Positions 1-31,318 of a stretch of 32,000 nt of DNA are shown one piece after another. Position 1 is the first letter of the stretch. The number at the start of each line of letters is the position of its first letter. Source of the stretch: an uncultured archaeon (GTDB lineage: Archaea; Iainarchaeota; Iainarchaeia; Iainarchaeales; Iainarchaeaceae); the NCBI GenBank assembly GCA_964577555.1, contig CAZNZM010000003.1, forward strand, positions 5,837 through 37,836, in the 5' to 3' direction. The translations under genes and the position numbers were made by a program. The notes under the pieces were generated by a model. It ran no database searches. It saw only the letters and a list, made by a program, of their open reading frames with translations, and was not told the DNA's origin.

Positions 1-480
1 GAGCCGTTTTTTTTTGTTATTTTTTTTTGTTTGTTTTTTGCAAGCCAATTTTTTTGTCATTTTTTTTTTGAATTATTTTTTTGTTTTTTTTTGTTGTTTT
101 TTTTGGCGAGCCGTTTTTTTTTGTTATTTTTTTTTGTTTGTTTTTTGCAAGCCAATTTTTTTTGTCATTTTTTTTTTGAATTATTTTTTTGTCAATTATT
201 TTTTTGCAAGCCGTTTTTTATGGAATTTGTTTTTTTTGGCGTATTTTTTTTGTTTTTTTAGTTGATTTTTTTGGCAAACCACTTTTTTTTGTCATTTTGT
301 TTGTTTTTGCAAGCCTTTTTTTGTTTTGTTTTTTGTAGAGTTGTTTTTTTTTCATTTTTTTTCTTTGTTATTTGAGCCATTTTTTTTGTTTTTGTGTATT
401 AAAATGTTTTTTTTCTTTGTATTTTTCTTGAGTTTGTTTTTTTTTGGTTTAATGGAAAATCTTTTTAATTTTGACATTCA
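1..480 (+). repeat. Non-coding T-tract array built from RAGCC-T(7-9) units; contains a ~107-bp tandem duplication
   Basis: Units such as ggcgagccgttttttttt, gcaagccaattttttt and ggcaaaccactttttttt start at about 1, 40, 105, 147, 206, 273, 309 and 373. Bases 1 to ~85 are repeated almost exactly at 108 to ~192. The only ORFs are poly-Phe artefacts. Confidence 0.75.
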
Positions 481-489
481 TATTAATGC

Positions 490-879
490 ATGCCTCATTT
501 TGATGCGTATATTTTCAACAAGAAAGGTATTAAGCGTAACTTGACTTTGATACTTGATGAAGGCGATGGCATTTTGGAGTCAATAAAGCAAGGTATGATT
601 CAGCATGGTTTGAGCGAGGTTAAAATAGAAGGTGCTGAGGGGAAAGTAAAGGAGGCTTTGATAAATTATTTTGAGCGTAATCAGTTCAAATCCAGTGTTT
701 TGAAGGATTCTAATGTAATGCTTGCTTCTGGTTCTTTTAAATTGAGTTATGGGGATTTATATGGTTCTATGAAAATAGCTACTTCTGACAAGCCGCCTAT
801 GCATGGCACTCTTGTAAAAGGTATTGCGCATGATGGTTTTGTTATAAAGTTGTCTTTTATTGATCTAATTGATAAGTGA
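490..879 (+). CDS. PPC (DUF296) domain protein, putative DNA-binding
   Basis: ATG at 490, 129 aa. Read by eye, it fits the PPC/DUF296 pattern (LILDEGDGILESI ... ASGSF ... PMHGTLVKG ... VIKLSF). Confidence 0.55.
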   Translation: MPHFDAYIFNKKGIKRNLTLILDEGDGILESIKQGMIQHGLSEVKIEGAEGKVKEALINYFERNQFKSSVLKDSNVMLASGSFKLSYGDLYGSMKIATSDKPPMHGTLVKGIAHDGFVIKLSFIDLIDK

Positions 880-885
880 ATTTGC

Positions 886-1446
886 ATGAAGCTTTTTTTG
901 GCGACTAATAATAAGCATAAGGTTGATGAAATTTCAGCGTTGCTTTCAGATTATGGTGTTGGTTTAAGGCAAGCCAAGTTGGATCTTATAGAGCCTGATT
1001 TTGGTTCTTTGGAAGAGATTGCGAGTTATAAGGTTAAGCAGGCTTTTGACAAGCTTAAAAAGCCGGTTATTGCAGAGGATACTGGTGTTTATTTTTGTGG
1101 TTATAATAATTTTCCAGGCACACTTGCAAAGAGGGTTTTTCTTGGAATTGGTTTTGATGGTTTGGTGGCTTTGGTAAGGCTTTCAAAGAATAAAAAAGCT
1201 TATTTCAAGACAGTAGTTTCTTATTTTGATGGAAAAAGGTTGAAGACTTTTTCAGGGGTTCTTAAGGGCAGGCTTCTTGAAAAGGTTGTTTCTATTGAAA
1301 AGGACAGGCTTCCTTATGAGAAAATATTTGTGCCGGATGGTTTTTCAAAAGCTTTGGTTGATATTCCTTTGGATGAAAAAAACAAGTTTTCTCATCGTGC
1401 AAAAGCAGTGAAAAAATTTGGTGAATGGTTTAACTCTTTGCAATAA
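886..1446 (+). CDS. Non-canonical purine NTP pyrophosphatase (HAM1/RdgB/ITPase family)
   Basis: N-terminal LATNNKHKVDEI and C-terminal FSHRAKAV motifs typical of the family. 186 aa. Starts 6 nt after the upstream gene. A T8 run follows the stop. Confidence 0.85.
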   Translation: MKLFLATNNKHKVDEISALLSDYGVGLRQAKLDLIEPDFGSLEEIASYKVKQAFDKLKKPVIAEDTGVYFCGYNNFPGTLAKRVFLGIGFDGLVALVRLSKNKKAYFKTVVSYFDGKRLKTFSGVLKGRLLEKVVSIEKDRLPYEKIFVPDGFSKALVDIPLDEKNKFSHRAKAVKKFGEWFNSLQ

Positions 1447-1516
1447 TAAAATTTGCTTTTTTTTGTATTCTATTTTTAAATTTCTTTTACAATTGAATAA
1501 TTATGTTGTGGTTTTT

Positions 1517-1602
1517 GCGGGAGTCCCATAGCCAGGTCAATTGGGTCAGGTTCAGGGCCTGATGGCTCAGTGCCTTCGGAGGTTCAAATCCTCCCTCCCG
1601 CA
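1517..1602 (+). tRNA. tRNA-Leu (anticodon CAG), class II with long variable arm, no encoded CCA
   Basis: Acceptor GCGGGAG/CTCCCGC. Anticodon stem TCAGG/CCTGA with loop TTCAGGG. T arm GGAGG-TTCAAAT-CCTCC. 15-nt variable arm. Discriminator A. Confidence 0.85.
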
Positions 1603-1668
1603 TTCTAATGCTTGTTGTTTTTTTGCGTTTTTTAGTAAAATCAGGTTTTTAAAATAAAATAATTTTAA

Positions 1669-1686
1669 CGGCCCAATTTTGGGCCG
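1669..1686. terminator. GC hairpin between convergent tRNA-Leu and the small acidic ORF
   Basis: cggccc-aatttt-gggccg is a perfect 6-bp GC stem in an otherwise AT-rich spacer. It lies downstream of both convergent units. Confidence 0.4.
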
Positions 1687-1725
1687 AAATTGGAAATATT
1701 GGTTAATAATAGAAAATTATTTTTT

Positions 1726-1860
1726 TTAGTAGCTTTCATCAGCGTCCGTGTCTGAGTCGTCGCTGTCGAAATCGTCATCTTCGTCTTCGTCTTCAAAGTC
1801 GTCATCTGTGTCGAAATCTTCTTCATCTTCGAATTTTATTGTTTTTTCCATGATGTCCAT
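1726..1860 (-). CDS. Small (44 aa) extremely acidic protein, function unknown
   Basis: Not in the ORF track because it is under 60 aa. An ATG at 1860 is preceded by GGAGGT about 7 nt upstream, and the stop TAA is at 1726-1728. Hand translation: MDIMEKTIKFEDEEDFDTDDDFEDEDEDDDFDSDDSDTDADESY. The stretch is locally more GC-rich than its surroundings. Confidence 0.5.
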   Translation of the reverse strand: MDIMEKTIKFEDEEDFDTDDDFEDEDEDDDFDSDDSDTDADESY

Positions 1861-2010
1861 GTTTCAACCTCCGAAATTATGTTACTGAAACTTCCTTGCA
1901 TTAAATATTTAAAGCTGACGTCAAGGCGTTTTTTTAGAGTATTTTTTATTTTTTTCCGTTTTTTGGGGGTTTGTTAATTTAAAAACTCTTGCCAATACTT
2001 TTTGAAATGC

Positions 2011-2083
2011 GGGCTCGTGGTCTATTGGTTATGACGCGACCTTCACACGGTCGAGGTAGCAGGTTCAATTCCTGCCGGGCCCA
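2011..2083 (+). tRNA. tRNA-Val (anticodon CAC), no encoded CCA
   Basis: Acceptor GGGCTCG/CGGGCCC (one G-U pair). Anticodon stem CGACC/GGTCG with loop TTCACAC. T arm GCAGG-TTCAATT-CCTGC. A TATA-like tttaaaaa lies about 30 nt upstream. Confidence 0.85.
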
Positions 2084-2085
2084 TT

Positions 2086-2303
2086 TTTAACATAAGAATT
2101 TTTAGTTGGTTTTATAATTGTTTCTTGAATTTTTTAATTTTATATTTTTTCCAAGCCATTTTTAGACAATTTTATTTTTTTGTCTTTTGCATGTCTTTTT
2201 GCCAGCCAACGTTTTTTTTGAGTTTAATTTTTTTTTGTTTTTTTTTCGAGTATTTTTTTAATTATTTTTTTTGAGCTCAATTTGTTTTTTTTAATTGTTT
2301 TTT
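2086..2303 (+). repeat. T-tract intergenic spacer with RAGCC-T(n) units
   Basis: ccaagccattttt at 2151 and gccagccaacgtttttttt at 2201. T-rich on the + strand, between tRNA-Val (+) and the 3' end of the HerA-like gene (-). Confidence 0.6.
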
Positions 2304-4673
2304 TTACTCTCTGAATGCGCTTGCTGTTATTCCTGAGTCCCATGAGAGTCTTGGCCTCATTTTTACAAGCCAGATTTTTTCGGTTTCGTCGTCAAGTATT
2401 AGTGCGAAACCTTTTCCGCGTGGCATTTCTTGGTAGTATTTGTCAAAATTTTGATACAAATAGGATGGTCTTAGTTGTGAAACTGCTTCTATGTCTGGTT
2501 GTGCTGTCATTCTGTGTGATATGAAAATGTCGCATTGGCTTATGCAGTCAGGGTGTAGTTTGTTCGGCCTTTGCGTTGCCAATACTAGTGAAAGCCCTGG
2601 TTGTCTTCCGACTCTTACCCATTCAAGTAATGAGGAAAGGGCTATGCTGTCTTCGTCTTTTGGCATGAACATGTGTGCTTCGTCAATTAACATCCAGATT
2701 ATTGGAAGGTCGCTTTCCCGAGAAAATCCTTTGATGACTCTTATTTCTTCTTCTTTTCTGTATAGCATTCTTTCTTCAAAAAGTCTTTTTCCTATAATGC
2801 CTACTATTATGTCTCTTGTTCCTTCCATTCCTGCGGCTTGTCTGTATGATGAAACGTCTATTATTGTGATTGTGTTTGGCCTTGCTAAGTCTTTGATTTT
2901 TGAACCTTCTTTTTCAAATAAACCCCATGTTTTTGCTGTTGCAAATCTTCCTGCAACTGCATCCTTGACGTTTTTTTCCGATTCAGTATCGTTTTTTGCC
3001 GATTCTATCAGGTCATCCAAGCCATAAAAGGTGCCGAGTTTTGCTTTGGCGTTTTCAATTACTCTGGCAATTAGTGATCCTTCCGGTTCTTTCCATGAAA
3101 CTTTGAATAGGCTCATCCATTCGTGTGAATCAAGTTCTGATGTTCTTATTGTGAATGCTCCGTCTATTGGTAGATCTTTTCTTTTGTAAAATTCGAATTG
3201 TCCTTTTGGTACCATTACTTTTATTTCTATTGGCTCTGGTTTTAGTTCCCATTTTTCTAATTCCGACGTGTTGTTTTTTGTTGGTATTTTCATGCTCCAA
3301 AAAATTCCGACAGTGTCAATCACTATTACACTCATTCTTGACCTTATTTCTATTGGTTGTCTTGCAAATTCTTCTATGAGTATTCCAAGTGAGTAAGAAT
3401 TGTGCACTATAATATCATTTGCTATAAAGTTGTGCGTATTTGGGACGCTTATATCATATACTTCAAATTTTCCAGTTATTTCTTTTATTGAAGTGATTGT
3501 GTCCCAATAAATATGGTTTTCTGTTTGTGTTGTTTCGTTTTTGGTGTCTTCGTTTGTTTTGATTATTTGTAGCATTTTTTGTCTTGAATTTTTTTCGTTT
3601 GTTTCAATTGTAATCTGGTTTTCAATTTGTTGTGTTTTGATTTCGCTTTTTAATTCGCATAGTTTTATTTCTTCTTCAAATTTTTGAATGAAATCTTTTT
3701 TTATTTCTATTTCATATTTGGCGTCTTTTTTTTTGTTTGTCAGTTTGGAAACTATTCCGAATCTTAGCAAAAGATGTTGTATTTGTTTGGCCAATTTTTC
3801 CGATGCAAAATAGTATTTCATTGGTTCTTGTTGGTTGTTGCATTTGAAAAGGGTGTTTAGAAATAGTGCTAATTTTTCTTTTGGCAATTTGAAAATTTTT
3901 TCAGGAATTTGTTTGTCACTGGTATTTATGATTTTTGTGTTTATTAATAGTTCTTTGATTTTTTTAGTGTTTTTTATTGCAATATAATTAGGTTCTTTTT
4001 CTTGGATTATTTTGTTTTGGTTGTCGAGTTCTTTTATGCTTGTTTTCAAGTCTTGTTTTGTTTCTTCATTCAAGTTGTGGAATAGTATGTATTTTTTGTT
4101 GGTTGTGCCTGTTGCTATAAAATATGCTGTTAATTTTATTTCTTGGTCTTTCATGTTTTCGTTTCCGAAGATATCGAGTTTTTTTGCAGTGGCTATTTTG
4201 CTTCCAATTGAGAGTTCCTTTGCTGGTCTCCAGCCTTGTTCAGTTAGCAATGGGTGTTCTGGCGTGAGTTTTATTTTTTTGCCTGTTTCTAATTCGATTT
4301 CAAGCATTTTTTCTGTTTGTCTTTTGTAAAATTCGTCTTTGTATGCTTCTTTGATTTTGCATGAGTTGTTTAAAGACATTATTTTTCTTTTGTCTTTTTC
4401 CAAGTCTTTTATTTTAACAAGCGAGCCGTCTGATAAAGTTATTAATGTGTCTCCTTCAAGGCATTTGCCCCCGCCTCGCTTTCCGCAAATTAGCATCATG
4501 TGTGGTCTTGCTATGTCTATAAGTACTTTTCTGCCAAGCACTGGGTTTTCGCCTGAACTCATTACCACTTTGCCAACGTATGCTGTGCCTTTGGTGCCGT
4601 ATTTTTCTATGTCTTTTTGGTTTCTTCCAAGTATTGAAAAGTCGTTTCCTTGGTTGTTAGTTTCGTTTTCCAT
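2304..4673 (-). CDS. HerA/FtsK-superfamily (DUF87-like) P-loop ATPase interrupted by an intein
   Basis: Walker A GKRGGGK|S is split by the intein. Walker B is WMLIDEAH, and an ATQRP motif typical of HerA-type ATPases is present. The precursor is 789 aa; the spliced product would be about 434 aa. ATG at 4673. Confidence 0.75.
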   Translation of the reverse strand: MENETNNQGNDFSILGRNQKDIEKYGTKGTAYVGKVVMSSGENPVLGRKVLIDIARPHMMLICGKRGGGKCLEGDTLITLSDGSLVKIKDLEKDKRKIMSLNNSCKIKEAYKDEFYKRQTEKMLEIELETGKKIKLTPEHPLLTEQGWRPAKELSIGSKIATAKKLDIFGNENMKDQEIKLTAYFIATGTTNKKYILFHNLNEETKQDLKTSIKELDNQNKIIQEKEPNYIAIKNTKKIKELLINTKIINTSDKQIPEKIFKLPKEKLALFLNTLFKCNNQQEPMKYYFASEKLAKQIQHLLLRFGIVSKLTNKKKDAKYEIEIKKDFIQKFEEEIKLCELKSEIKTQQIENQITIETNEKNSRQKMLQIIKTNEDTKNETTQTENHIYWDTITSIKEITGKFEVYDISVPNTHNFIANDIIVHNSYSLGILIEEFARQPIEIRSRMSVIVIDTVGIFWSMKIPTKNNTSELEKWELKPEPIEIKVMVPKGQFEFYKRKDLPIDGAFTIRTSELDSHEWMSLFKVSWKEPEGSLIARVIENAKAKLGTFYGLDDLIESAKNDTESEKNVKDAVAGRFATAKTWGLFEKEGSKIKDLARPNTITIIDVSSYRQAAGMEGTRDIIVGIIGKRLFEERMLYRKEEEIRVIKGFSRESDLPIIWMLIDEAHMFMPKDEDSIALSSLLEWVRVGRQPGLSLVLATQRPNKLHPDCISQCDIFISHRMTAQPDIEAVSQLRPSYLYQNFDKYYQEMPRGKGFALILDDETEKIWLVKMRPRLSWDSGITASAFRE
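3399..4463 (-). mobile_element. Intein (355 aa) inside the Walker A motif, with a degenerate LAGLIDADG-like endonuclease domain
   Basis: Cys1 codon at 4461-4463 (CLEGDTLITL, block A). LTPEH (block B). VYDISV..HNFIANDIIVHN followed by +1 Ser (blocks F/G; Asn codon at 3399-3401). The central motifs LTAYFIATGT and LALFLNTLFKCNN align to LAGLIDADG positions but lack the acidic residues. Confidence 0.85.
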
Positions 4674-4812
4674 GTTATTTAGAACTGCTTTTTAGTATTT
4701 TAATATATATTCTGGCTGTTGGTTAATGGGAGTTAAGGGGGAGGAGGTTTCACATTTCTCTTAGGTGGGGGTTTAATAATTAGTTGAGAATGTTTTGCCT
4801 CCTTCCGCCTTC

Positions 4813-5298
4813 CTAGCCTTTTGCTAAGTATATCACTTTTTTTCCTGATTGGACTTTTTTAAGGTGTCCTTCTCTGTATAGTTTATTTAATCTTTGGCAT
4901 GCTGCGTTTAGTCCTTTATAATTTAGCATTGTTTTTATGTCTGTTGCAGTGCAGCCGCCTCTTTCTTCTATTGTTTTGAGTATGAGTTGGTCTTGTTCTC
5001 CTAGTATTTCAAATTTTGTTGTTTGTTGGTTTGGCTGGTTCTGCTCTTCAATTTTTGTGTTTTGGCTTGTTTTTAATGTAAGCATGATTTTGTCGAATTT
5101 GTCGTTTATTTCTTCTAATAATTTGTTTGTGTGTTCTCTTTCTCTGACTACTTTTAGCATTATTGCAGCAAGTATTTTGGGGTTTTCAGCGTGGGCTATT
5201 AAATTGTCTATTTCTTGCATTTCCGAAGCTTTTGGAATTATTTTTTCCAAAAATTCCTTTTCTTGAATTGCTTCCTTGAAAATATCATGACTATTCAT
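4813..5298 (-). CDS. Winged-helix (MarR/TrmB-like) putative transcriptional regulator with N-terminal helical region
   Basis: 161 aa. The C-terminal 60 aa (LGEQDQLILKTIEERGGCTATDIKTMLNYKGLNAACQRLNKLYREGHLKKV) fit a wHTH pattern. The ATG sits inside the phased TCATGA array. Confidence 0.5.
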   Translation of the reverse strand: MNSHDIFKEAIQEKEFLEKIIPKASEMQEIDNLIAHAENPKILAAIMLKVVREREHTNKLLEEINDKFDKIMLTLKTSQNTKIEEQNQPNQQTTKFEILGEQDQLILKTIEERGGCTATDIKTMLNYKGLNAACQRLNKLYREGHLKKVQSGKKVIYLAKG

Positions 5299-5335
5299 GA
5301 TTTATCATGATGATTCATGATATATAAATATTTAT
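5285..5335 (-). promoter_or_regulatory. Promoter/operator: TATA box plus four TCATGA palindromes at exact 10-bp spacing overlapping the start codon
   Basis: TCATGA at 5285-5290, 5295-5300, 5305-5310 and 5315-5320. A TATA-like tatataaatattta lies at 5321-5334. The gene's ATG (5296-5298) is inside the second palindrome and about 25-30 nt from the TATA box, which implies a leaderless mRNA. Confidence 0.5.
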
Positions 5336-5339
5336 CGCA

Positions 5340-5680
5340 TTAGGAAAACCAAATTCTTGTATAAAACCTTTTATTTAAGCCCCTATATAATTTATGGGGT
5401 TTAAGGTTTTTTTGGTGTTTTTTTGATTGAATAAAATATCATTGATTAGTATGTTTTTAAATCAATTGTTGGCTCATTTTTTTGTGTTTTTTCAGGTGTT
5501 TCTTTGATTTTTTAGTTTGTTGGTGCTATTTTAATATTTCCCTCGTATTTTTGTCCCTCAAAAGTTTTTTTTAATGGATTTTTGGGGTTATTAAAAATTA
5601 TTTATTTGTTTTTTTTGGGTTTTTGGTTGAATTTTCATTTTTTTTGGCTGGTTGGTTATTTTTTTTAGTGAAGGGCTTTT
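5340..5680 (+). repeat. T-rich intergenic spacer (weaker member of the T-tract repeat class)
   Basis: Lies between two - strand genes yet is T-rich on the + strand. Contains ggctcattttttt (~5471) and ttttttggctggttgg (~5641). Motif content is lower than in the other spacers. Confidence 0.35.
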
Positions 5681-6274
5681 TTATTGTGTTTGTTTTTCTT
5701 CAATAATTTTTGCTGTGTATGTTTTTATTTTAATTTCATTTATTCCTTTTTTCCATTCTTCTTTGTCAAGTCCTGCTTTTTTGCATAGTTCTGAAATGAA
5801 TTCTTCTTTTTTTGGCAATTGTTTCCAGACTTGTGGCAGGAATGTGGCTTTTCTTGTCCCTTTTTGCAATATTATTCCCTTGTTGTTTTTTAGTTTTTTT
5901 AGCAGTTCTTCTGGTGATTTGAATTTGAGTTCTTTTGGCTTTGAAAGTATTGATATTTCTATTTTGATATTTTCTATTTCGTCTTCTGTTGTTATGGGGT
6001 GAAATCGTGGATCGTAGAATGTTGCAAGAACTGCGTTTTTTATTATTGTTTCATAAAGTTTATTTTCAGGTTCAATATTTCCAATGCATCCATGCAGTTC
6101 ATCATTAAGGTATATTGTAACAAAGCACCCTTTTGTTTTTTTAAGTTCTTGAAACGGTATTTCTTTTGGTTTTATTTGCATTATTTTTTTGTATTTCATG
6201 AAGTGCCTTATTGAGGTTCTTGCCAATTTTAATGAGAATTTTTCTAATTCATTTTTCTTGTTCATGTGTCTCAC
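5681..6274 (-). CDS. AMMECR1-family protein (AmmeMemoRadiSam system protein A)
   Basis: LHGCIG motif and overall AMMECR1 pattern. The GTG start at 6274 overlaps the upstream stop (GTGA); an alternative ATG is at 6265. Confidence 0.85.
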   Translation of the reverse strand: MRHMNKKNELEKFSLKLARTSIRHFMKYKKIMQIKPKEIPFQELKKTKGCFVTIYLNDELHGCIGNIEPENKLYETIIKNAVLATFYDPRFHPITTEDEIENIKIEISILSKPKELKFKSPEELLKKLKNNKGIILQKGTRKATFLPQVWKQLPKKEEFISELCKKAGLDKEEWKKGINEIKIKTYTAKIIEEKQTQ

Positions 6275-20944: not shown

Positions 20945-20946
20945 TG

Positions 20947-24634: not shown

Positions 24635-24924
24635 ATGCGGCAAAAATAAGCGTTGTTTTCGTATTTTTGGCTTTTGCATTGGTTTTGGCTGGTTGTTCTA
24701 ATAAACCTGTTCCTCCTCCAAATCCACCTCAAAATGATGTTAAGGTTGATGTAAAGCAGGACAATCCTGTGACTGAAAAGCCTGCCAATGTAGAACCTGT
24801 TAAAGTACCTTCGGACGAATTAAACGATATTCAAAAGGAGCTTGCAGAAATGGAAAAGACCATTGAAAGTGAAAATTCGTCTGATTTGGAGTTGGTTGAA
24901 ATAGATGAAAGCACCTTCCAATGA
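24631..24924 (+). CDS. Small lipoprotein (LAGC lipobox), Pro-rich linker, acidic C-terminus (cassette copy 2 partner)
   Basis: MNAAKISVVFVFLAFALVLAGCSNKP has a canonical lipobox. ATGA overlap with the upstream gene. The C-terminal motif is similar to the 20143 product. Confidence 0.6.
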   Translation: MNAAKISVVFVFLAFALVLAGCSNKPVPPPNPPQNDVKVDVKQDNPVTEKPANVEPVKVPSDELNDIQKELAEMEKTIESENSSDLELVEIDESTFQ

Positions 24925-24950
24925 AGGTGCAATTTTCTTTATTTTTTTAC
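24911..24950 (+). terminator. Hairpin plus T-rich tail overlapping the lipoprotein stop codon
   Basis: gcaccttc-caat-gaaggtgc (perfect 8-bp stem, 24911-24930) followed by aattttctttattttttt. Lies between convergent genes. Confidence 0.55.
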
Positions 24951-24955
24951 TCTTT

Positions 24956-25186
24956 TTACTCTATTTTTTTTACAAAAATGCATGGAACTGGACAAGCATC
25001 TGCCGCTTCTTTGTTTTGATTGTACTTTGATTCGTCAATAATTTTTACTTCGACAGCTCCTTCTTTTTGCGAGCCTTGAAGGTGCGATTTGTCACCATCC
25101 ATTATCCAATCTTCAGGGTCTATTGCTGCGCATGCTCCGCAACCTATGCAAATTTCTTTTTGATGTTCAACTCTGAATTTTGCCAT
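24956..25186 (-). CDS. Small ferredoxin (single Fe-S cluster type)
   Basis: CIGCGACAAIDP ... ADACPVPCI cysteine pattern. 76 aa. Confidence 0.75.
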   Translation of the reverse strand: MAKFRVEHQKEICIGCGACAAIDPEDWIMDGDKSHLQGSQKEGAVEVKIIDESKYNQNKEAADACPVPCIFVKKIE

Positions 25187-25240
25187 GTAAAAACCTCTTT
25201 CGTAATATATGTTGGCTGTTGTTTTAAATGTTGTGCAGTG

Positions 25241-25702
25241 TTAAAGCCCGAATCCTTTAATTATTTCGTCTGCATGCGATTCTACTTTTGGTTTGTCAAT
25301 TATTTTGACGATTTTGCCTTTTTCATTTATTAAAAAGGTTGTTCTTGCAATTCCTAAAAATGTTTTGCCGTAAAGGCTTTTTTTCTTCCAAACCCCGTAT
25401 TTTTCAAGTACTTCCATTTTTTCGTCTGAAAGTATGGGGAAATTGAATTTGAATTTTTCAGCAAATTTTTTGTGGCTTTCCAATCCATCTTTGCTTATGC
25501 CGACAATTTCAATTCCTTTTTCCTTCAATTTGTCATAATTGTCCCTTATATTGCATCCTTGTATAGTGCATCCAGGAGTATCGTCTTTTGGATAAAAGTA
25601 AACTACAAGTTTCTTTCCTTTATAGTCTTTCAATTTGTGGATTTTTCCATTTTGGTCAGGCAAATTGAATTCAGGCGCTTTGTCCCCTTCTTTAAGCTCC
25701 AT
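25241..25702 (-). CDS. bcp: Peroxiredoxin, Bcp type (thiol peroxidase)
   Basis: KLVVYFYPKDDTPGCT active-site motif. The track start is GTG 25711; the ATG at 25702 is preceded by GGGTGA. Confidence 0.9.
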   Translation of the reverse strand: MELKEGDKAPEFNLPDQNGKIHKLKDYKGKKLVVYFYPKDDTPGCTIQGCNIRDNYDKLKEKGIEIVGISKDGLESHKKFAEKFKFNFPILSDEKMEVLEKYGVWKKKSLYGKTFLGIARTTFLINEKGKIVKIIDKPKVESHADEIIKGFGL

Positions 25703-25830
25703 TAAAATCACCCAAAACGATTTTGTTTTTTTTGCAAATAAATATTGTTTGGTTCGTTAAATAAAATCCATTGATAATTTTTTTGTAATTATATTAGTTT
25801 TTCTGCAATTCATCTAAAAAAATATTTTTT

Positions 25831-26133
25831 TTATGAATCTGATTTTATTGTGTTTATTTTGGGAATTGCAAAAAAAATCAAAAACCATGCCAAAATAACC
25901 GCCATTGACATTGCAATTCCAAGCATAAAGCTGTTTGTAATAATGCCTTCGGTTGTTTCTTCCAAAAAAGCTTCGCCTTCCAAAAATGCGGTTGCCTTGT
26001 CTGAAAAAATCATTATTGTCGAACCCCAAAACATTAATGCAAGATAATCTGTTTTATATTTTCTAAAATTCGGAAAAAGCAAGTAAATAAGACTTGTTGC
26101 AATTGAAAAAAACAACATTGTTATTAACCACAT
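25831..26133 (-). CDS. Small 3-TM membrane protein, paralog of the upstream gene
   Basis: 100 aa. Same architecture as the 26147 product, with by-eye similarity (TM - FWGST/IFGGS - acidic loop - TM). 13-nt gap to the upstream gene. Confidence 0.5.
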   Translation of the reverse strand: MWLITMLFFSIATSLIYLLFPNFRKYKTDYLALMFWGSTIMIFSDKATAFLEGEAFLEETTEGIITNSFMLGIAMSMAVILAWFLIFFAIPKINTIKSDS

Positions 26134-26146
26134 TTTCTCACTTTTG

Positions 26147-26491
26147 TTATGTGTTGTGGCTTGTTTTGGTTGTCTGAGGCACTAATATTTTTTCATAAAC
26201 CAAAACCATTGTAATCCATGTTAATATTATTAAAAACGCCATTGGAACCCCGATTTTTATCATTTCGTTTAGCATTATGCTTGTTGTTTCTGGCGATTCC
26301 ATTGCTGTCAAAAAAGGAAACCAAGGAACGATTTCCTGATGTGCATAATGTTCTACTGCCAGAGCCACTGAGCCGCCAAAAATCATTGTGTTAAGCCAAT
26401 TTATGCGCCAATTTGTAGGAAATTTTTTTCTTAATGCTGTTGTGATTATGCCTATTGTCAGGGGAACCAAAAAACAAGCCATGAAAAACAA
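26147..26491 (-). CDS. Small 3-TM membrane protein
   Basis: 114 aa from TTG 26491; the ATG at 26482 gives MACFLVPLTIG. Tandem paralog of the 25831 product. Confidence 0.5.
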   Translation of the reverse strand: MFFMACFLVPLTIGIITTALRKKFPTNWRINWLNTMIFGGSVALAVEHYAHQEIVPWFPFLTAMESPETTSIMLNEMIKIGVPMAFLIILTWITMVLVYEKILVPQTTKTSHNT

Positions 26492-26555
26492 TTCTTTGAT
26501 TTGAATTTAAATGTATTCTTTTCTGAAATAATGCAAAAAATTGCAAATTCGGTTT

Positions 26556-26705
26556 TTAGTTTGGCTTTTTTGCGAATTTTGTTATCTCCAAATTGCACGA
26601 TTTGTTTTTTTTGCACCAAGCTTCGCATTTTTCAGCCCATTGCCTTTCCTTATAATACAAGTTGCATTCTTCGCATTGAAAGAACTCAAAATATTTTTTT
26701 ACCAT
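26556..26705 (-). CDS. Small (49 aa) Cys-rich protein (CxxC ... C...C......C)
   Basis: Not in the ORF track. Hand translation: MVKKYFEFFQCEECNLYYKERQWAEKCEAWCKKNKSCNLEITKFAKKPN. ATG at 26705, TAA at 26556-26558. First gene of a - strand cluster with the two membrane paralogs. Confidence 0.5.
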   Translation of the reverse strand: MVKKYFEFFQCEECNLYYKERQWAEKCEAWCKKNKSCNLEITKFAKKPN

Positions 26706-26873
26706 AAAATACTAACCAAGTATTCAAATTAAATTTTTATTTGTTTTAACTATCGGCTTGTTGTTTTTATTGCTGGTTGATTAAATCAAAAAAAATCTCT
26801 TTTTTTGCTTTAGCTAATTTCAAGCAATTTTTTTTGATTCATTGCATTTGCTTTAAAATCATTGCATGTAAAG

Positions 26874-26958
26874 AAATTATGTGCGGCGTTGATGAACTGA
26901 CGATGACTCTGACCTTGTGGTATGAAGATAGATGGGCGAACTGAGCCGCACATAATTT
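26874..26958 (+). ncRNA. Candidate C/D-box sRNA enclosed by a 14-bp perfect terminal stem
   Basis: Stem aaattatgtgcggc (26874-26887) pairs with gccgcacataattt (26945-26958). C box tgatga at 26890-26895, then a 13-nt spacer. D' ctga at 26909-26912. C' tgaaga at 26923-26928, then a 12-nt spacer. D ctga at 26941-26944. The boxes read correctly only on the + strand. Confidence 0.5.
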
Positions 26959-26963
26959 TTATT

Positions 26964-27026
26964 ATGAAATCATTATTTGGGTTTTTAGTTTTTTTATTTT
27001 TTAGAATTAATGGTTTTTGGCAATGT
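26964..27026 (+). pseudogene. Detached 5' fragment (native ATG and signal-peptide N-region) of the pLGIC-like gene
   Basis: ATG at 26964 encodes MKSLFGFLVFLFFRINGFWQC. The last 6-7 codons lie in direct-repeat copy A, in the same phase as copy B in front of the channel ORF. Confidence 0.55.
27007..27026 (+). repeat. Direct repeat copy A (ttaatggtttttggcaatgt)
   Basis: Perfect 20-mer identical to 28440-28459. The similarity extends 2 more nt with a 1-nt T-run length difference. Confidence 0.9.
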
Positions 27027-27082
27027 GAGTTTGTGGTTGTTTGCCATTTTTTTTGTTTTTATTTTGAATGTTTCCATGCGAT

Positions 27083-27859
27083 TCACTTTTTGGCGGGTTT
27101 CTTTTTTTTGTATTTGAAGTGTTTTGCAATTGCCATTATTGCAGTTTTGTATTCAATCGGATTGTTGGCTAGGGCACCAATTTCGAATTCCCACTTGTCA
27201 TAAACTTTGTTGGCGTTTTTGAAAATCTGCTCAACAACAAATTTCTGGTTGATGTCTTTGAGTTTTTTCCTTACAAGCGGCAGGTCAATCGGGATTTTTT
27301 TCTGAATTATTGAATAGAGGTCAAAATAGTCCCTCGCTTTTTTTCTTTGAAAAAGCGTTCGAACCTTTTCCGCAATCAACTCTTTCTTGTTGAGTGTTGA
27401 AACTTCAAATTCTGGAATCTCATCATAAAAATGCGGAACCTTGTATTTTTGAGGCTTCAAATAAACACTAGCCTGCTTGTTCACGTCAACAACAATCTCC
27501 GGCCTCAAATCAGTTATTGTTTTGTAGGAAATTTTTAGCCTGAAAAAGTTTGGCGTCTGCTTGTCAAACTGTGTTCTGGTAAAAAATTCTTTGTGGCTTT
27601 CAATGATTTTAAGAATTGATTGTTTTGCTTTCTGTAAAGAGCCGATGCAAGTAAAGTCTAAGTCTTCGCTCAGCCTGTTGTGGTTGAGAAAAATCTTGTT
27701 CAACGCGGTCCCGCCTTTGAAACAAAGCGCTGGAACATCTCTGAGGAAATACAGTAATACAGTCAGGTAATAGTCTTTTTCCATGTAATAGAGGCCGAAT
27801 TTTTTGTCTGCCGCCAGGAAGCGCAGGCGGTTTTCGGTTATGGGCTTGATTTCAACCAT
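27083..27859 (-). CDS. abiEii: AbiEii/DUF1814 nucleotidyltransferase toxin (type IV TA)
   Basis: FKGGTALNKIF...RLSEDLDF nucleotidyltransferase motif and downstream KVRTL..R..ARDYFDLY motif, characteristic of AbiEii. 258 aa. Confidence 0.85.
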   Translation of the reverse strand: MVEIKPITENRLRFLAADKKFGLYYMEKDYYLTVLLYFLRDVPALCFKGGTALNKIFLNHNRLSEDLDFTCIGSLQKAKQSILKIIESHKEFFTRTQFDKQTPNFFRLKISYKTITDLRPEIVVDVNKQASVYLKPQKYKVPHFYDEIPEFEVSTLNKKELIAEKVRTLFQRKKARDYFDLYSIIQKKIPIDLPLVRKKLKDINQKFVVEQIFKNANKVYDKWEFEIGALANNPIEYKTAIMAIAKHFKYKKKKPAKK

Positions 27860-28338
27860 CCCATTACCTTTTCCTTAGAGGCTATTTTGAAAGAATGATT
27901 TTTGGTTTTTTGTTCGACAAATCCAACAAGATTTTTTGGTCTGATTCTCTTGAACACTATCTCTGTATCAAAGAGCTTGGTTTTGCCCTGTTTGTTGGTG
28001 CAAAAAACTTCTATTTTTCTGGGGATTTGGTCAACGAAACCCCAGTAATGCGCAGCGGCAAAACCGCCAATAAAATAATTCTTGCCATTAAAGATTTCGT
28101 CAATTACAATAAAGGGGTTTTCCGACCACTTGTTTTGATAGGCCCTTACTGGAACAAGGTAGTATTTTGATTTGTTGATCTTGATGACTCTTTTTTTAGC
28201 TTTGAGCCTGTTGATGTAAACCCGAAGTTCATTGGTGTTTTTAAAAAATTTCTTTATGTCCTCCCTTGAAAAAAAGTTTTTATCGTTGAGTTCGAGGAAC
28301 GAAACAACCTCAATTTCCTTGCTGGAAAGCCCCTTCAT
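27838..28338 (-). CDS. abiEi: AbiEi-family antitoxin / wHTH transcriptional autoregulator
   Basis: N-terminal wHTH region and YFIGGFAAAHYWGFVDQIPRKIEVF motif typical of AbiEi. 22-nt overlap with the toxin gene. Confidence 0.8.
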   Translation of the reverse strand: MKGLSSKEIEVVSFLELNDKNFFSREDIKKFFKNTNELRVYINRLKAKKRVIKINKSKYYLVPVRAYQNKWSENPFIVIDEIFNGKNYFIGGFAAAHYWGFVDQIPRKIEVFCTNKQGKTKLFDTEIVFKRIRPKNLVGFVEQKTKNHSFKIASKEKVMGWLKSSP

Positions 28339-28382
28339 ATTGTTACACCAAAATTAACATTTTATTAATTCTAATGTAACAA
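28339..28382 (-). promoter_or_regulatory. Candidate AbiEi operator: nested inverted repeats immediately upstream of abiEi
   Basis: ttgttaca (28340-28347) pairs with tgtaacaa (28375-28382). An inner pair is aattaa (28352-28357) and ttaatt (28365-28370). The repeats overlap AT-rich TATA-like sequence. Confidence 0.35.
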
Positions 28383-28439
28383 ACCAATTTAAATTTTTTG
28401 GTGTGAGAAAATCGAGTTATTTGTAAACAACAAGCACAA

Positions 28440-28459
28440 TTAATGGTTTTTGGCAATGT
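28440..28459 (+). repeat. Direct repeat copy B (ttaatggtttttggcaatgt)
   Basis: Identical to 27007-27026. Followed by a T9 run and then the TTG that opens the channel ORF. Confidence 0.9.
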
Positions 28460-28465
28460 TTTTTT

Positions 28466-29329
28466 TTGTTAGGTTTGATTGCTTTTGCTTCAGCTGAGCC
28501 GGCAAAAGTAAAGGTCGGGGTTTATGTTTTGAGTATTGGAAAATTTGAAGTGAGTACTGGTTCTTATACTGTGGATTTTTATTTGTCAATGAAATGTGAG
28601 AATGAATGCGATCCAAGCAATTTTGAATTTACAAATGGCAGGGCTGTTTCAGTGGATAAAATAATTGATTTGACTAATGAAAAATTTTATAGGATTCAAG
28701 CTGCTTTGGCTGAGAATATTGATTTGAAGCAATATCCTTTTGATGATCACTATTTGACAATCAGTTTGGAGGATAAAAAGAATACGATTGATGATTTGGT
28801 TTATGTGTTTGACGAACAGGCTTCTGGAGTTGATCCTTCTGTTGTGTTAGTTGGTTGGGATTTAACTGGTAATATTGGCGAGGTAACTACTCATTATTAT
28901 CCGCCGTATGATGAAACTTATTCTAGGTTTGTCTATAAAGTGCATATAAAGAGAATTTTTTTGGCGGCTGTGATGAAAACTTTTTTGCCTATTTTGTTTA
29001 TTGTTATTGTAGGTTTGCTTGCGTTGTTGATTCATGAGTCTGACAAGCTTTGGACAAGGATTGGAGTAAATACTTCTTCGCTTATAGCTTCAGTCATGTT
29101 TCATTTGAATGTAACTTCCAGCATTCCGCCTGTGGGTTATTTGACTTTTGCTGATAAGTTCATGATTGCTACTTATATTATTTTGATATTGAGTTTGTTG
29201 AGCACTATAATAATGATGAGGCATGCAAAACAAAAAGACGAGAAAATGCTTGAAAAAATTTATCATGTTTCTCTTTATGCAATACCTGTTTTTGCGCTAA
29301 TTTTATATGGTTTGGTAATTTTTTTGTAA
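28466..29329 (+). CDS. Pentameric ligand-gated ion channel (GLIC/ELIC-like, Cys-loop superfamily) homolog, 5' end displaced by the insertion
   Basis: Beta-rich N-terminal domain (VKVGVYVLSIGKFEVSTGSYTVDFYL, YPFDDHYLTISLE at the Cys-loop-equivalent FPFD position). Pre-M1 YSRFVYKVHIKR. Four TM helices, with the M2-M3 segment RIGVNTSSLIASVMFHLNVTSSIPPVGYLTFADKF. The only in-frame start is TTG 28466. Confidence 0.75.
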   Translation: MLGLIAFASAEPAKVKVGVYVLSIGKFEVSTGSYTVDFYLSMKCENECDPSNFEFTNGRAVSVDKIIDLTNEKFYRIQAALAENIDLKQYPFDDHYLTISLEDKKNTIDDLVYVFDEQASGVDPSVVLVGWDLTGNIGEVTTHYYPPYDETYSRFVYKVHIKRIFLAAVMKTFLPILFIVIVGLLALLIHESDKLWTRIGVNTSSLIASVMFHLNVTSSIPPVGYLTFADKFMIATYIILILSLLSTIIMMRHAKQKDEKMLEKIYHVSLYAIPVFALILYGLVIFL

Positions 29330-29331
29330 AA

Positions 29332-29359
29332 TTCAAATGCTTGATTGAAGTTTTTTTTT
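29332..29359 (+). terminator. Weak AT hairpin plus T9 after the channel gene
   Basis: ttcaa...ttgaa (29332-29349) followed by ttttttttt (29351-29359). Confidence 0.3.
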
Positions 29360-29403
29360 AACGTTTGGCATTTCGGAATCGATTTTTAATTTTATTTTTT
29401 TAT

Positions 29404-30195
29404 ATGTTTTTAGTTAAGATGTCTAAATCTAAGCGTGATTTAAGAAAGACTAAAATGCCTGGCAATTGGGTGCGTTTGGGTAGGCCTGAAAGAGAACGCA
29501 GACGATTTGCTTTTTCAAATGAAACTGCCTCTTTTCCTTCTGTAGAAATATTTGATAGACGGAGTCTTTGGAATGTTTTTGGCAGTAATATTAATGTAAT
29601 TGAACATGATTTAAATTTTAGAATTAGGGATCATATTAGGTCGTTGTTTAGTAATAATAGCAGAGTTGTTAATGTTCTTGATTTGGGTTGTGGCAAGGGT
29701 GTTGCGTTGAATGATTTGAAAAGGCTTTTTGGTGATAGGGTGAGGACTTTTGGACAGGTTGCAGCTGTTAGTCCTAGTGAAAAATATGAGGGTGTTGATA
29801 GGCTTTTGGTTGGTTCTTTGACTTTGCCTGACAAACCCCTTAGACTTGTCAGGGTTAATATGGGTATGAATGTTGAGTTGGATAAAAACATGGTTTTTAG
29901 GGCTAGGCCTATTATGGATTTGATTTATTCTTATTTTGGTACTTCTTATCATTCTTTTTTGAAATTAACTGTTTTAGAAGAGGTTATTAAGTGGCTTAGG
30001 CCTGGCGGAATTGCTGTTATCCAGTTTGACTGTTTTAGTCCTAACAGTCTTAAATTTAATGATGATGTTAGATTCAAGAATGAAATTGCTCTTTTATTGA
30101 GGCAATATAGAATTAATAATTTTGAATTTAAACGGACTGGTTCAGATTTATGGCCTACTGTTTTATTTTTTCAAAAACCGGTTGTTAAATTGTGA
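29404..30195 (+). CDS. Class I SAM-dependent methyltransferase
   Basis: Motif I VLDLGCGKGVAL and motif LRPGGIAVIQF. The start is uncertain: track TTG 29365, ATGs at 29404 and 29419. Confidence 0.65.
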   Translation: MFLVKMSKSKRDLRKTKMPGNWVRLGRPERERRRFAFSNETASFPSVEIFDRRSLWNVFGSNINVIEHDLNFRIRDHIRSLFSNNSRVVNVLDLGCGKGVALNDLKRLFGDRVRTFGQVAAVSPSEKYEGVDRLLVGSLTLPDKPLRLVRVNMGMNVELDKNMVFRARPIMDLIYSYFGTSYHSFLKLTVLEEVIKWLRPGGIAVIQFDCFSPNSLKFNDDVRFKNEIALLLRQYRINNFEFKRTGSDLWPTVLFFQKPVVKL

Positions 30196-30326
30196 GTGGT
30201 GTTCCAAGTATTTTCAATATTGCAAAGTGTTTTTTAGAAGCTAATGAAATTGCCAAAAATTTGTGGCGGTTGCGTAGTCTTGTGTGGGTATTAAGTGCTT
30301 TAGGTTATAGTAACGTCATTTTTTAA
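30192..30326 (+). CDS. Possible 44-aa small ORF coupled to the methyltransferase stop (GTGA overlap)
   Basis: Hand translation from GTG 30192: VSGVPSIFNIAKCFLEANEIAKNLWRLRSLVWVLSALGYSNVIF. It fills an otherwise unexplained 160-nt non-T-tract gap. No further support. Confidence 0.2.
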   Translation: MSGVPSIFNIAKCFLEANEIAKNLWRLRSLVWVLSALGYSNVIF

Positions 30327-30357
30327 TTATTTTTTTGTTTTGTCATTTGTGGTTTTT

Positions 30358-31110
30358 ATGAATGGCTTTACTGCTCATATTATTGTTAAGAATGAAGAAA
30401 GATTCATTAATTATGCTATTGAGTCTGCGCTTCTTATTGCTGATCAAGTTATTGTTTTTGATACTGGTTCTACGGATTCAACAATTGAAATAGTGCAATC
30501 TTTGGTTAGAAAATATCCTAATAAAATATTTTTTTTTGAGAAGGGTAATCAGAGCACAACTGGGCTTGTTGAATTGAGAAATGAAATGATAAAGCTTACT
30601 AAGACTGATTGGTTTTTTTTAGTAGACGGTGATGAAGTAGTCTCTATAAAAAATTTATCTGCTTTTTTAAATTTTTTTAGTTCTTTGTCTGAAAAAGTTT
30701 CAAGAGTTGAGGTGAATAGGCGTGATTTTATAGGAGATGCTAATTTAGTGGCAAGAAATAGTTTGGTTGGGCGGTTTTATAAGACAAATAAAATAGTTTT
30801 TTTTGGGGAATATCCTTTTGAATATCCTGTTTTGAAAGACTTTTCAAAAGAAACAATTGAATCTTTTTCTGTAAGCATTTCGGAAGATTTGGTTTTGTAC
30901 AATCATTTTACTTATTTTGCCCGTTCGCAAAAAGATAATGATGTAAAGTTTGGGAGACACTGGCGTAAGTTGCCTTTTCCAATATTATTGTATTTTGGGT
31001 CAAAACCTGTTCCAAATATTGATGAAAATTTGGTTGTTGCTTTGTTAAAATTTCCGATTTATAATTTAATTGGGTTGTTTAATAATATGTTGTTATTTAA
31101 TAGAAAATAG
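30358..31110 (+). CDS. Glycosyltransferase family 2
   Basis: HIIVKNEERFINYAIESALLIADQVIVFDTGSTDSTIEI and FFLVDGDEVV (DxD-type) motifs. The track start is TTG 30340; the ATG at 30358 gives MNGFTAHIIV. Confidence 0.75.
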   Translation: MNGFTAHIIVKNEERFINYAIESALLIADQVIVFDTGSTDSTIEIVQSLVRKYPNKIFFFEKGNQSTTGLVELRNEMIKLTKTDWFFLVDGDEVVSIKNLSAFLNFFSSLSEKVSRVEVNRRDFIGDANLVARNSLVGRFYKTNKIVFFGEYPFEYPVLKDFSKETIESFSVSISEDLVLYNHFTYFARSQKDNDVKFGRHWRKLPFPILLYFGSKPVPNIDENLVVALLKFPIYNLIGLFNNMLLFNRK

Positions 31111-31318
31111 TGATTTTTTTTTAATATAAATTTCATTTATTTTTTTTATTAAGATTTTGTTTTTAATTTTGGAATTGTTTTTTTTGTTATTTTTTTTGTA
31201 TTCTTTTTTTGTGAGCCATTTTTTTTATTTTCTTTTTTTTCGTTTTTTTTTTAATTTTAATACTTTGTTTTTTTTGTTTGTTTTGGTTTTTTAATACTTT
31301 CCTAAATTGTTTTTTTTT
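31111..31318 (+). repeat. T-tract spacer with an RAGCC-T(n) unit
   Basis: gtgagccatttttttt at ~31212. T-rich on the + strand. Confidence 0.55.

Follow-up and report, generated by a model that had tools for sequence, protein, structure and literature searches.

The DNA described here comes from a tiny DPANN archaeon (Ca. Diapherotrites). The window is the whole stretch of 32,000 nucleotides that was analysed (1..32000); together with the adjoining part, 41 kb of a 68-kb contig were read. Long intergenic spacers of the window hold arrays of short repeat units with oligo-T tracts (Table 1). The arrays are 150-750 bp long, contain 77-83% A+T (T.63-.75, A.07-.14, G.13-.15, C.03-.08) and total ~2.7 kb, or 3.0 kb counting 5340-5680, i.e., 8-9% of the window, close to the tenth estimated in an earlier sequence-only reading of this DNA. 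Two further arrays of the same polarity lie past the window on the same contig (~36226-36623 and 40574-41110). The flanking genes are in tandem on the + strand, in tandem on the - strand or convergent, and all eight arrays with both flanks known are in spacers with a gene 3' end. The eight spacers that had been grouped into one family match the intergenic intervals derived here, but two of them are not clear members: the spacer 5299-5680 has no informative 14-mer in common with any other spacer, and 2084-2303 has a single one.

Table 1. T-tract arrays and other features of the window
Feature	Position	Strand	Setting and details
T-tract repeat array	1..470	+	upstream of + gene at 490; cores GGCGAGCC and GCAAGCC
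T-rich spacer, marginal family member	2120..2303	+	tRNA-Val (+) to 3' end of HerA-like gene (-); cores CCAAGCCA, GCCAGCCAACG
T-rich spacer, 53% T, not in repeat family	5299..5680	+	flanked by two - genes
Largest array, 66% T, 32 T7+ runs	8130..8817	+	flanked by two - genes
Array, 75% T	11068..11211	+	convergent deoxyhypusine synthase (+) / IleRS (-) genes
Array, 63% T, 32 T7+ runs	15190..15836	+	between kinase (-) and thermosome (-) genes
Perfect hairpin GGCTGGCG-T8-CGCCAGCC from core motif	15805..15828		8 nt past thermosome stop codon (- strand)
Array	22190..22480	+	flanked by two + genes; cores GCGAGCC, GAGCCA, GCAAGCCAG, GACTAGCCG
AbiEii/AbiEi gene pair	27083..28338	-	four-fold sites unskewed, T 0.22-0.23
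Array	31111..31318	+	flanked by two + genes; core GTGAGCCA

The claim that T-tract units in the long spacers have one orientation is borne out by the consensus GCRAGCCNTTTTTTT: with at most one mismatch (GCRAGCC-N-T7) it has 15 matches in the window, 15 of them on the + strand, when shuffles give an expectation of 0.27. Other definitions of the unit, applied to the same window, are also strongly biased to the + strand: AGCC-N0-3-T6+ is found 21 times on + and twice on -, the relaxed form RAG[CT][CTG]-N0-3-T6+ 41 and 3 times, GTCATTTTT 9 and 0 times, and T7+ runs 225 and 13 times. The run lengths are strongly non-random, with a peak at 7-9 (57, 68 and 34 runs of 7, 8 and 9 compared with 22, 15 and 10 expected) and just two runs of 11 or more. 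Throughout the 41 kb the composite units are on the G+T-rich strand. They are confined to spacers, with none in coding DNA; GCRAGCC by itself is found 13 times in spacers and, within genes, 6 times on + and once on -, which is near chance. In the earlier reading no reverse units had been noticed apart from the right arm of a hairpin at 15821-15828. This is true of the composite unit (15 vs 0) but not of the six-base core: GGCTTG, the complement of CAAGCC, is present on the + strand five times (0.5 expected), each copy preceding a + strand T-run of its own, and the bare core occurs in both orientations (18 vs 5). The strict polarity is a property of the T-run and the composite unit, not of the six-base core. 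The cores themselves form a decay series, GCGAGCC > GCAAGCC > GCAAACC / GCAAGTC / GCTAGTC.

As judged by sequence comparison, the arrays are homologous mosaics of related non-coding repeat copies. Different spacers have 23 distinct 20-mers in common (0.01 expected), the order of modules is the same across spacers, and homologous modules are present in at least eight separate spacers in one orientation. Modules of the array 15190..15836 are collinear with 100-300 of the array 1..470; a module of 11068..11211 matches 8501-8555, with internal expansion; and 8130..8817 contains the module GGCGAGCCG-T8-GTCG-T8-G-T3-GAAA-T4-G-T7 and, at 8309-8328, the wobble hairpin TGGTTTGT-TTTT-GCAAGCCA. The head-to-tail copies and local periodicity of tandem arrays are evident throughout, with Tandem Repeats Finder giving periods of 10-78 bp and 62-88% matches in every array, and a recent tandem duplication in the array 1..470 has left 1-85 and 108-193 100% identical bar one extra T. 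The shared 20-mers, this duplication and the core decay series support a common descent of the units as repeats that duplicate and decay. Of the earlier suggestion of decayed miniature mobile repeats, the decay is supported. The features of a MITE were not found: the arrays have no terminal inverted repeats (278 plus-strand and 0 minus-strand matches in BLAST between spacers) and no defined element ends. No array had an Rfam match at gathering score, and a search of the two largest arrays at E up to 1 gave one match at chance level (E = 0.35). The ancestral unit was probably a hairpin followed by a T-run, since there are nine wobble hairpins of the form GTTTG-T4-9-core (0.01 expected), in addition to the five reverse cores and the perfect hairpin at 15805-15828. 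The mean folding energy over all units (-2.3 kcal/mol) is not distinguishable from that of shuffles (-1.7 kcal/mol).

The sequence-only reading had raised the concern that the arrays could be assembly or low-complexity artefacts. Short-read assemblies of run SRR12686701 do break within arrays, and in another sample one short contig has a terminal poly-T stretch that differs from the window. Nevertheless, the JGI contig Ga0394875_0000553 matches the window base for base across all arrays, and contigs of SRR12686701, an independent run, are 100% identical to it over the whole of 31111-31354 (the Logan assembly L168 spans this array) as well as in sections of two further arrays. Intact protein-coding genes also carry the same skew, and we regard an artefact as very unlikely.

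Read on the + strand, four-fold sites in 1..32000 are ~60% T, 16% A, 13-18% G and 8-10% C in + and - genes alike: the values are T.61 and A.16 for + genes and, on the sense strand, A.58 and T.16 for - genes, which is ~58% T on the + strand. The composition of the arrays equals that of these four-fold sites. Of 43 genes, only a few are without the skew, whose sign is constant across 41 kb of the contig, and the polarity is tied to the chromosome strand and independent of the direction of transcription, as had been noted earlier. The AbiE pair, which is unskewed, is an internal control and shows that a gene acquires the skew gradually, with its time of residence. Since the whole strand appears to be mutating to T, genes as much as spacers, the direction of the repeats need not be a signal; with the same T bias at every neutral codon site, no signal is required for the polarity.

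Comparison with sister genomes, which had been called for, showed that the relatives have no arrays and that their syntenic spacers are only 13-201 bp long. The thermosome-kinase spacer is 53-201 bp in relatives and 689 bp here, and the IleRS-deoxyhypusine synthase spacer is 13 bp in L171, the sole relative where these genes are adjacent, and 144 bp here. Two scans of sequence collections gave chance matches alone, and the one that covered 185,579 species genomes gave no locus with multiple unit matches. In six relatives with 83-93% thermosome identity there is no strand-linked skew. A second genome, GCA_038889715.1 (L172; 86% thermosome identity), is skewed and has the thermosome and IleRS block on the opposite strand: four-fold sites of these genes are 75-81% T there and 60-61% A here, and the deoxyhypusine synthase gene is shifted in the opposite sense, so that all three orthologues have opposite skews on opposite strands. 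GCRAGCC is absent from this genome, which has at most a decayed AGTCG-T form. The two skewed genomes are not mutual closest relatives when ranked by thermosome identity, so that either the trait has two origins or the skew distorts amino-acid identity. Substitutions on the T-rich strand, polarised against the unskewed relatives, include 21 G>T and 13 C>T here; in the skewed relative there are 30 C>T, 17 A>T and 12 G>T.

We consider it fairly probable that the arrays are 3'-end repeats that duplicate and decay and whose form is due to an extreme, strand-specific pressure for mutation of everything to T, probably linked to replication. The ancestral form would have consisted of a small GC hairpin and an oligo-T run behind it, like those that some genes of this genome have at their 3' ends, and it would have been amplified into arrays within one Diapherotrites lineage. 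Local tandem duplication and T-run slippage would lengthen the arrays, pieces of which would also be copied from spacer to spacer, a step that may need T-tract (micro)homology present in one orientation alone. The uniform direction would then be not a property of the repeats but the non-coding face of a pressure that drives every base to T, keeps G above C and gives synonymous codon sites the same composition in genes of either direction. The T-rich strand may be the one that stays single-stranded for longer, where deaminated C, lost purines and oxidised G would all be copied as A; the link to replication is inferred, there being no polarity switch in 41 kb of one contig. Strand asymmetry is generally ascribed to deamination in single-stranded DNA (PMC3269012), and in a complete Diapherotrites genome (Ca. 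Forterrea) the cumulative GC skew is that of a single origin, where cdc6 is located (PMC5905446). The arrays would serve as dense oligo-T terminators of + strand transcription, and a function need not be assumed. Against this explanation, the narrow T7-9 peak and the persistence of ~18 intact GC cores in spite of strong C>T pressure could be due to selection instead of a young age. The placement of the arrays in spacers with a gene 3' end and the relationship of the two skewed genomes, described above, also speak against it.

An alternative already proposed in the sequence-only reading is that of one-directional terminators or insulators, here taken to be selected, in which stacked oligo-T tracts, some with a weak hairpin, stop + strand RNA polymerase, including antisense and read-through transcription. 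Archaeal transcription canonically ends at T-runs of at least five on the non-template strand, and here 19 of 20 + genes have such a run (T5-T10) no more than 80 nt from the stop codon, while the units resemble a hairpin with a T-run and some do have a preceding hairpin. Arrays are present in 8 of 22 spacers with a gene 3' end and in none of 8 divergent spacers, which hints at function or constraint, although the enrichment is not significant (Fisher p = 0.07). Unlike archaeal terminators, however, the arrays stack tens of tracts over hundreds of bases when one or two T-runs are enough to terminate, so that 30 tracts stay unexplained; the three largest are flanked by - genes on both sides and would face no annotated + transcript; and the relatives manage with their short spacers. 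On the sense strand, only 9 of 23 - genes, and no - gene preceding an array, have a T-run of at least five after the stop, which means that termination is not the organising principle. We therefore regard selected terminators as unlikely. Slightly less likely still are replication-polar signals, either KOPS/AIMS-like translocase guides or primase zones on a T-rich lagging-strand template. The placement of every composite unit on the G+T-rich strand over 41 kb, a strongly skewed strand distribution such as the polar octamers also have, would fit, as would a polarity that tracks the chromosome strand and not the genes; archaeal/eukaryotic-type primases also favour pyrimidine-rich templates. Yet the background skew fully accounts for the polarity, and whereas KOPS and AIMS are conserved and spread through genes, the units here are spacer-confined, visibly decaying and lineage-private, with a core that occurs in both orientations and has at most a decayed counterpart in the other skewed genome.

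Alternatively, the units could be non-autonomous mobile elements that, like IS200/IS605, REP or PATE elements, insert by way of single-stranded DNA and whose orientation is set by fork direction, a possibility that we rate about as low as that of replication signals. Single-stranded DNA transposons insert with a bias relative to replication, and homologous modules of one orientation with traces of a palindromic ancestor, set head to tail in many spacers, do recall minisatellite-like arrays and REP/BIME clusters. However, most units are without a palindrome and all are strictly co-oriented and homopolymer-dominated, conserved subterminal hairpins and target-site duplications were, like defined ends, not found in the arrays, and no TnpA or RAYT-like gene was called within 41 kb. 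Matches between spacers on the plus strand alone, module mosaics and local tandem periods fit the dynamics of arrays rather than discrete insertions. It is more doubtful still that the arrays are structural DNA, i.e., bent, easily unwound or histone-excluding poly(dA:dT) that organises the nucleoid. Their A+T-richness and T7-9 tracts, together with a nearby called histone-fold gene (a faint Pfam match), would suit such a role, but the role does not need strand polarity, and the arrays are absent from relatives. The phased T-tract curvature suggested earlier is not supported: from start to start the tracts are most often 12-17 bp apart, a spacing that would cancel bending, and they show neither 10-11 bp phasing nor any other helical periodicity.

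It is also possible, though again unlikely, and to about the same degree as for selected terminators, that the chromosome of this lineage and of the second one, at 86% thermosome identity, is replicated or repaired asymmetrically in a mitochondrion-like way and that the arrays are useful as sites of lagging-strand priming or fork restart. One parental strand would remain single-stranded or unrepaired for long, e.g., during unidirectional or strand-displacement-like replication, or repair of uracil, abasic sites or 8-oxoG would have been lost on the lagging-strand template. If so, every lesion would be copied as A, neutral DNA would be driven to 60-80% T, and the T7-9 arrays would be more than debris, having been amplified through their usefulness.

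The strand-specific mutation pressure that we favour resembles replication-associated asymmetry with its G+T-rich leading strand (PMC5905446, PMC3269012) in that G exceeds C and T exceeds A at neutral sites regardless of gene direction, and in the opposite skews of orthologues on opposite strands. It differs in being far larger, with a four-fold T:A of ~4:1 here and 8:1 in the skewed relative, to our knowledge nearer to the values of animal mitochondria than to those reported for prokaryotes, and in the contribution of transversions to T (G>T, A>T) beside C>T. The CPR bacterium Ch65 and other UBA1400 Microgenomates have a G/C disparity over the whole chromosome (PMC7143001). Ch65 likewise combines a very small genome with a drastic difference in strand composition that is unrelated to the distribution of genes between strands; its disparity is between G and C (15% vs 30%), without one between A and T, and extends around the whole chromosome, whereas here T vs A dominates and is seen over 41 kb (PMC7143001).

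The polarity of the T-tract arrays is a property of the chromosome strand rather than of the repeat. The G+C content of the window is 29-41%, and its + strand is very T-rich over the whole length. At four-fold degenerate codon positions, which were taken as neutral, the + genes contain T, A, G and C at frequencies of.61,.16,.13 and.10, and the - genes, read on their sense strand, contain A.58, T.16, C.18 and G.08, equivalent to about 58% T on the + strand. The view of the sequence-only reading that polarity is independent of the direction of transcription is therefore upheld, with four-fold T on the + strand being about 60% in + and - genes alike. The composition of the arrays (T.63-.75, A.07-.14, G.13-.15, C.03-.08) is essentially that of the four-fold sites. 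All neutral DNA drifts to an extreme degree toward T on one chromosome strand, with G above C, and the arrays are homologous T-tract repeats that duplicate, decay and have the composition of the neutral equilibrium. The magnitude of the asymmetry, which turns synonymous sites 60-80% T on one strand, is the surprising part of the finding and the source of the array polarity. Strand asymmetry in prokaryotes is usually subtle and statistical; to our knowledge, an asymmetry of this magnitude is nearer to that of animal mitochondria than to that of reported prokaryotic chromosomes. The T bias is seen gene by gene, the main exception being the AbiEii/AbiEi pair, whose unskewed four-fold sites suggest recent horizontal acquisition. 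A block with weaker skew may have been inverted, or acquired later than its surroundings.

Features of the window (the second paralogous neighbour lies in the extension of the matching public contig)
Feature	Position or make-up	Strand	Remarks
AbiEii/AbiEi-like gene pair	27083-28338	-	four-fold T.22-.23, unskewed, unlike all neighbouring genes
Weaker-skew gene block	20967-26482		four-fold T.40-.59, A.17-.33; without arrays
3' flanks of - genes without a T-run	2224-2303, 8738-8817, 11132-11211, 15757-15836	-	examples
Array module	GGCGAGCCG-T8-GTCG-T8-G-T3-GAAA-T4-G-T7		present in three spacers
Array module	GCAAGCYG-T6-10-ATGGAA-T3-G-T8-GGCG		present in three spacers
Array module	GGCGTA-T8-GGCAAACCAC-T7-GTCA		present in two spacers
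Likely C/D-box small RNA	26878-26955	+	boxes TGATGA...CTGA...TGAAGA...CTGA, 12-bp terminal stem
49-aa ORF	26556-26705	-	CxxC...C...C pattern (zinc-ribbon-like); missing from the gene calls of the public contig
HerA/DUF87-type ATPase	2304-4673	-	789 aa, intein-interrupted; the intein contains a LAGLIDADG homing-endonuclease domain
Paralogous neighbours	29404-30195 and ~35404-36225		83% nucleotide identity over 227 bp (29802-30028 vs extension 35910-36136)

That polarity follows the strand and not the repeat is confirmed by GCA_038889715.1, a second strongly skewed related genome, in which orthologues located on opposite strands flip their four-fold skew. The syntenic thermosome-kinase-IleRS block lies on the T-rich strand there and on the A-rich strand in the window, its four-fold sites being 75-81% T in the former vs 60-61% A in the latter, and the deoxyhypusine synthase gene, oppositely oriented within the block, has the reverse four-fold pattern. 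When the ancestral state was approximated by four unskewed relatives and conserved four-fold codons were compared, the changes on the T-rich strand were all toward T in both skewed genomes (G>T 21 and C>T 13 in the window; C>T 30, A>T 17 and G>T 12 in GCA_038889715.1). Strand-linked skew is absent from six other relatives (thermosome identity 83-93%, 39-52% G+C), which have ordinary gene-sense codon bias only, and the trait is thus recent and restricted. The thermosome closest to that of the window (15837-17471), with 92-93% amino acid identity, is encoded by a contig of SRR11567540 whose genome has 49% G+C and is unskewed. The drop to 33% G+C and the extreme skew therefore arose over a short evolutionary distance, the thermosome having diverged by about 8% in amino acid sequence while the genome moved from ~50% to 33% GC.

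The arrays themselves are a genuine and unusual feature. All eight spacers named in the sequence-only reading are real intergenic intervals, and T7-9 runs make up all of them but 5299-5680; their estimated share of about a tenth of the window agrees with the measured array total of 8-9%. Most array T-runs are parted from the next by one base (G, A or C), and the other separators are short GC-containing words (GGCGAGCCG, GCAAGCCAA, GGCAAACCAC, GTCA, GAATTA). The unit GCRAGCCNTTTTTTT, allowing at most one mismatch, occurs 15 times, always on the + strand, vs 0.27 expected, as had been claimed for one-strand units; AGCC-N0-3-T6+ is found 21 times on + and 2 times on -, GTCATTTTT 9 times on + and 0 on -, and runs of at least seven T number 225 on + and 13 on -. 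An assembly artefact is contradicted by contigs of the independent run SRR12686701, which are 100% identical over one whole array and parts of two more. The JGI contig Ga0394875_0000553 (68,106 bp) also matches the window, the sole internal difference being a 42-bp in-frame indel at 23720, within a coding tandem repeat (VVRPVPDR-type), and its further 9 kb contain two additional arrays of unchanged polarity, bringing the contig sequence examined to 41 kb. A bisulfite-like or damage artefact was ruled out by intact proteins, by the C content of 8-10% at four-fold sites and by the agreement of independent samples. The SRR12686701 assembly tends to break within arrays; because arrays break short-read assemblies, genomes of this lineage are expected to be fragmented exactly at the array spacers.

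The arrays are mutually related beyond a likeness in composition, as judged from their shared words. Of the 20-mers containing no more than 13 T, 23 distinct ones are common to different spacers (0.01 in shuffles), as are 104 distinct 14-mers (3.4 in shuffles). Long collinear BLAST alignments between arrays, at 67-72% identity, were uninformative because low complexity aligns in many registers, and modules were compared through informative k-mers and module order with T-runs collapsed to their lengths; compared in this way, module order is conserved between different spacers. Tandem periods inside arrays are 10-78 bp, and one duplication is very recent, 108-193 being equal to 1-85 but for one T. 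The core decays in the series GCGAGCC > GCAAGCC > GCAAACC / GCAAGTC / GCTAGTC / GTGAGTC, as expected if C were replaced by T and G by A. The lengths of the T-runs form a sharp peak at 7-9, and runs longer than 10 are very rare; the peak is mild in the shorter spacers of the relative and is thus largely made of amplified copies, which would slip by one or two bases below an upper stability limit. Comparison with sister genomes, as proposed earlier, identifies the arrays as lineage-specific expansions, syntenic spacers being shorter in relatives: the thermosome-kinase spacer is 689 bp in the window vs 53-201 bp in relatives, and the spacer between IleRS and the deoxyhypusine synthase gene measures 144 bp vs 13 bp in GCA_038889715.1 (contig L171). 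Another contig of the latter genome, L172, contains short T-rich spacers (513-779, 5132-5414 and 12918-13035; 59-72% T) punctuated by AGTCG-T5+, with 5 matches to AGTCNTTTTT vs 1.0 expected, and this word may be a C>T-eroded AGCCG-T unit.

The single orientation claimed for the units holds for the composite unit, which is always on the + strand, but not for the six-base core, whose complement GGCTTG occurs five times on that strand vs 0.5 expected; all five copies have a T-run of their own after them. In nine units the core is preceded by GTTTG(G)-T4-9 (0.01 expected), with which it can pair through G.U, and a perfect 8-bp GC hairpin, GGCTGGCG-T8-CGCCAGCC, is located 8 nt beyond the thermosome stop. 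A hairpin in every unit is not significant overall and is significant for a subset. Given the reversed cores, the nine G.U-pairing units and the perfect hairpin, the ancestral unit was probably a small hairpin followed by a T-run. Hairpin and T-run elements occur at several gene 3' ends in the genome, and the repeat family is best regarded as 3'-end debris that has been amplified and is eroding.

Several functions had been considered for the arrays. Phased DNA curvature would require 10-11 bp phasing, which is absent, tract spacing having its peak at 12-17 bp. KOPS/AIMS-like signals do not fit units that are absent from genes, are decaying and lack conservation in the second skewed genome. The proposal of decayed mobile repeats was right in that the copies are related, duplicating and decaying, but MITE-like ends were not found, and spacers have no similarity to one another in reverse orientation. 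No known RNA families were found in the arrays, and scans for bacterial-type promoters and terminators gave chance-level results.

A role as one-directional terminators is made less likely by the location of the three biggest arrays between - genes whose 3' flanks lack any T-run. The usual archaeal termination signal is oligo-U. The + genes have T6-10 shortly after the stop, and most - genes have no T-run of at least four within the first 80 nt past the stop and thus miss the signal; the thermosome gene has its perfect hairpin in place of a T-run. The asymmetry in this way deprives about half of the genes of the usual termination signal. Arrays are present in 8 of the 22 spacers holding a gene 3' end vs none of 8 divergent spacers, a difference that is not significant (p = 0.07), making a preference for such spacers suggestive only.

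The asymmetry is probably tied to replication. In a complete Diapherotrites genome the skew is of the bacterial type, with a single origin at which cdc6 is located (PMC5905446), and in standard theory it is the strand left single-stranded that becomes enriched in G+T (PMC3269012). Transversions to T equal C>T in prominence, from which we infer that A is inserted opposite non-instructive lesions of the T-rich strand, namely uracil, abasic sites and oxidised G. Modules would spread between spacers via copying dependent on T-tract (micro)homology, and this homology, existing in one orientation only, would suffice to maintain all arrays in a common orientation. The asymmetry of the window may also be a whole-chromosome, non-flipping disparity of the kind described for the CPR bacterium Ch65 (PMC7143001), for which unidirectional or asymmetric replication has been proposed. 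The organism offers a natural system for the study of the lesions and the polymerase or repair losses behind archaeal replication skew, of the DPANN replication mode (one origin, unidirectional, or delayed lagging-strand synthesis), and of archaeal transcription termination without U-tracts on one strand.

The contig carries archaeal genes (thermosome, deoxyhypusine synthase, IleRS, Sec61-beta, tRNA-splicing endonuclease and NucS), and the closest named thermosomes are those of Candidatus Diapherotrites, a DPANN lineage. A scan of 185,579 species genomes with TTTTTGGCGAGCCGTTTT returned 58 single matches, mostly in unrelated bacteria, the only archaeal one being inside an ABC-transporter gene (L045). 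The TTTTTKGCRAGCCNNTTTTTTT scan of metagenome contigs returned 100 single-match loci, with none from this organism among the matches listed or re-scanned, and viral contigs gave 3 chance matches. At the stringency of both scans, the motif is private to the lineage. Homopolymer-rich metagenome contigs retrieved by the scan were rejected as C/T-rich, homopolymer-riddled sequence with no relation to this organism; five of them (L105, L120, L146, L084 and L134, from Ga0179593_*/Ga0179591_*) are chance matches with one-strand homopolymers, e.g., 124 A7+ runs in 13 kb, and look like error-laden reads.

The likely C/D-box small RNA, recognized by its boxes and terminal stem, has a sub-threshold match to Rfam archaeal sR2 (24.6 bits, E = 0.0026); the 600-bp spacer around it is not rich in T. 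The HerA/DUF87-type homologue in L172 is intein-free and is 429 aa long.
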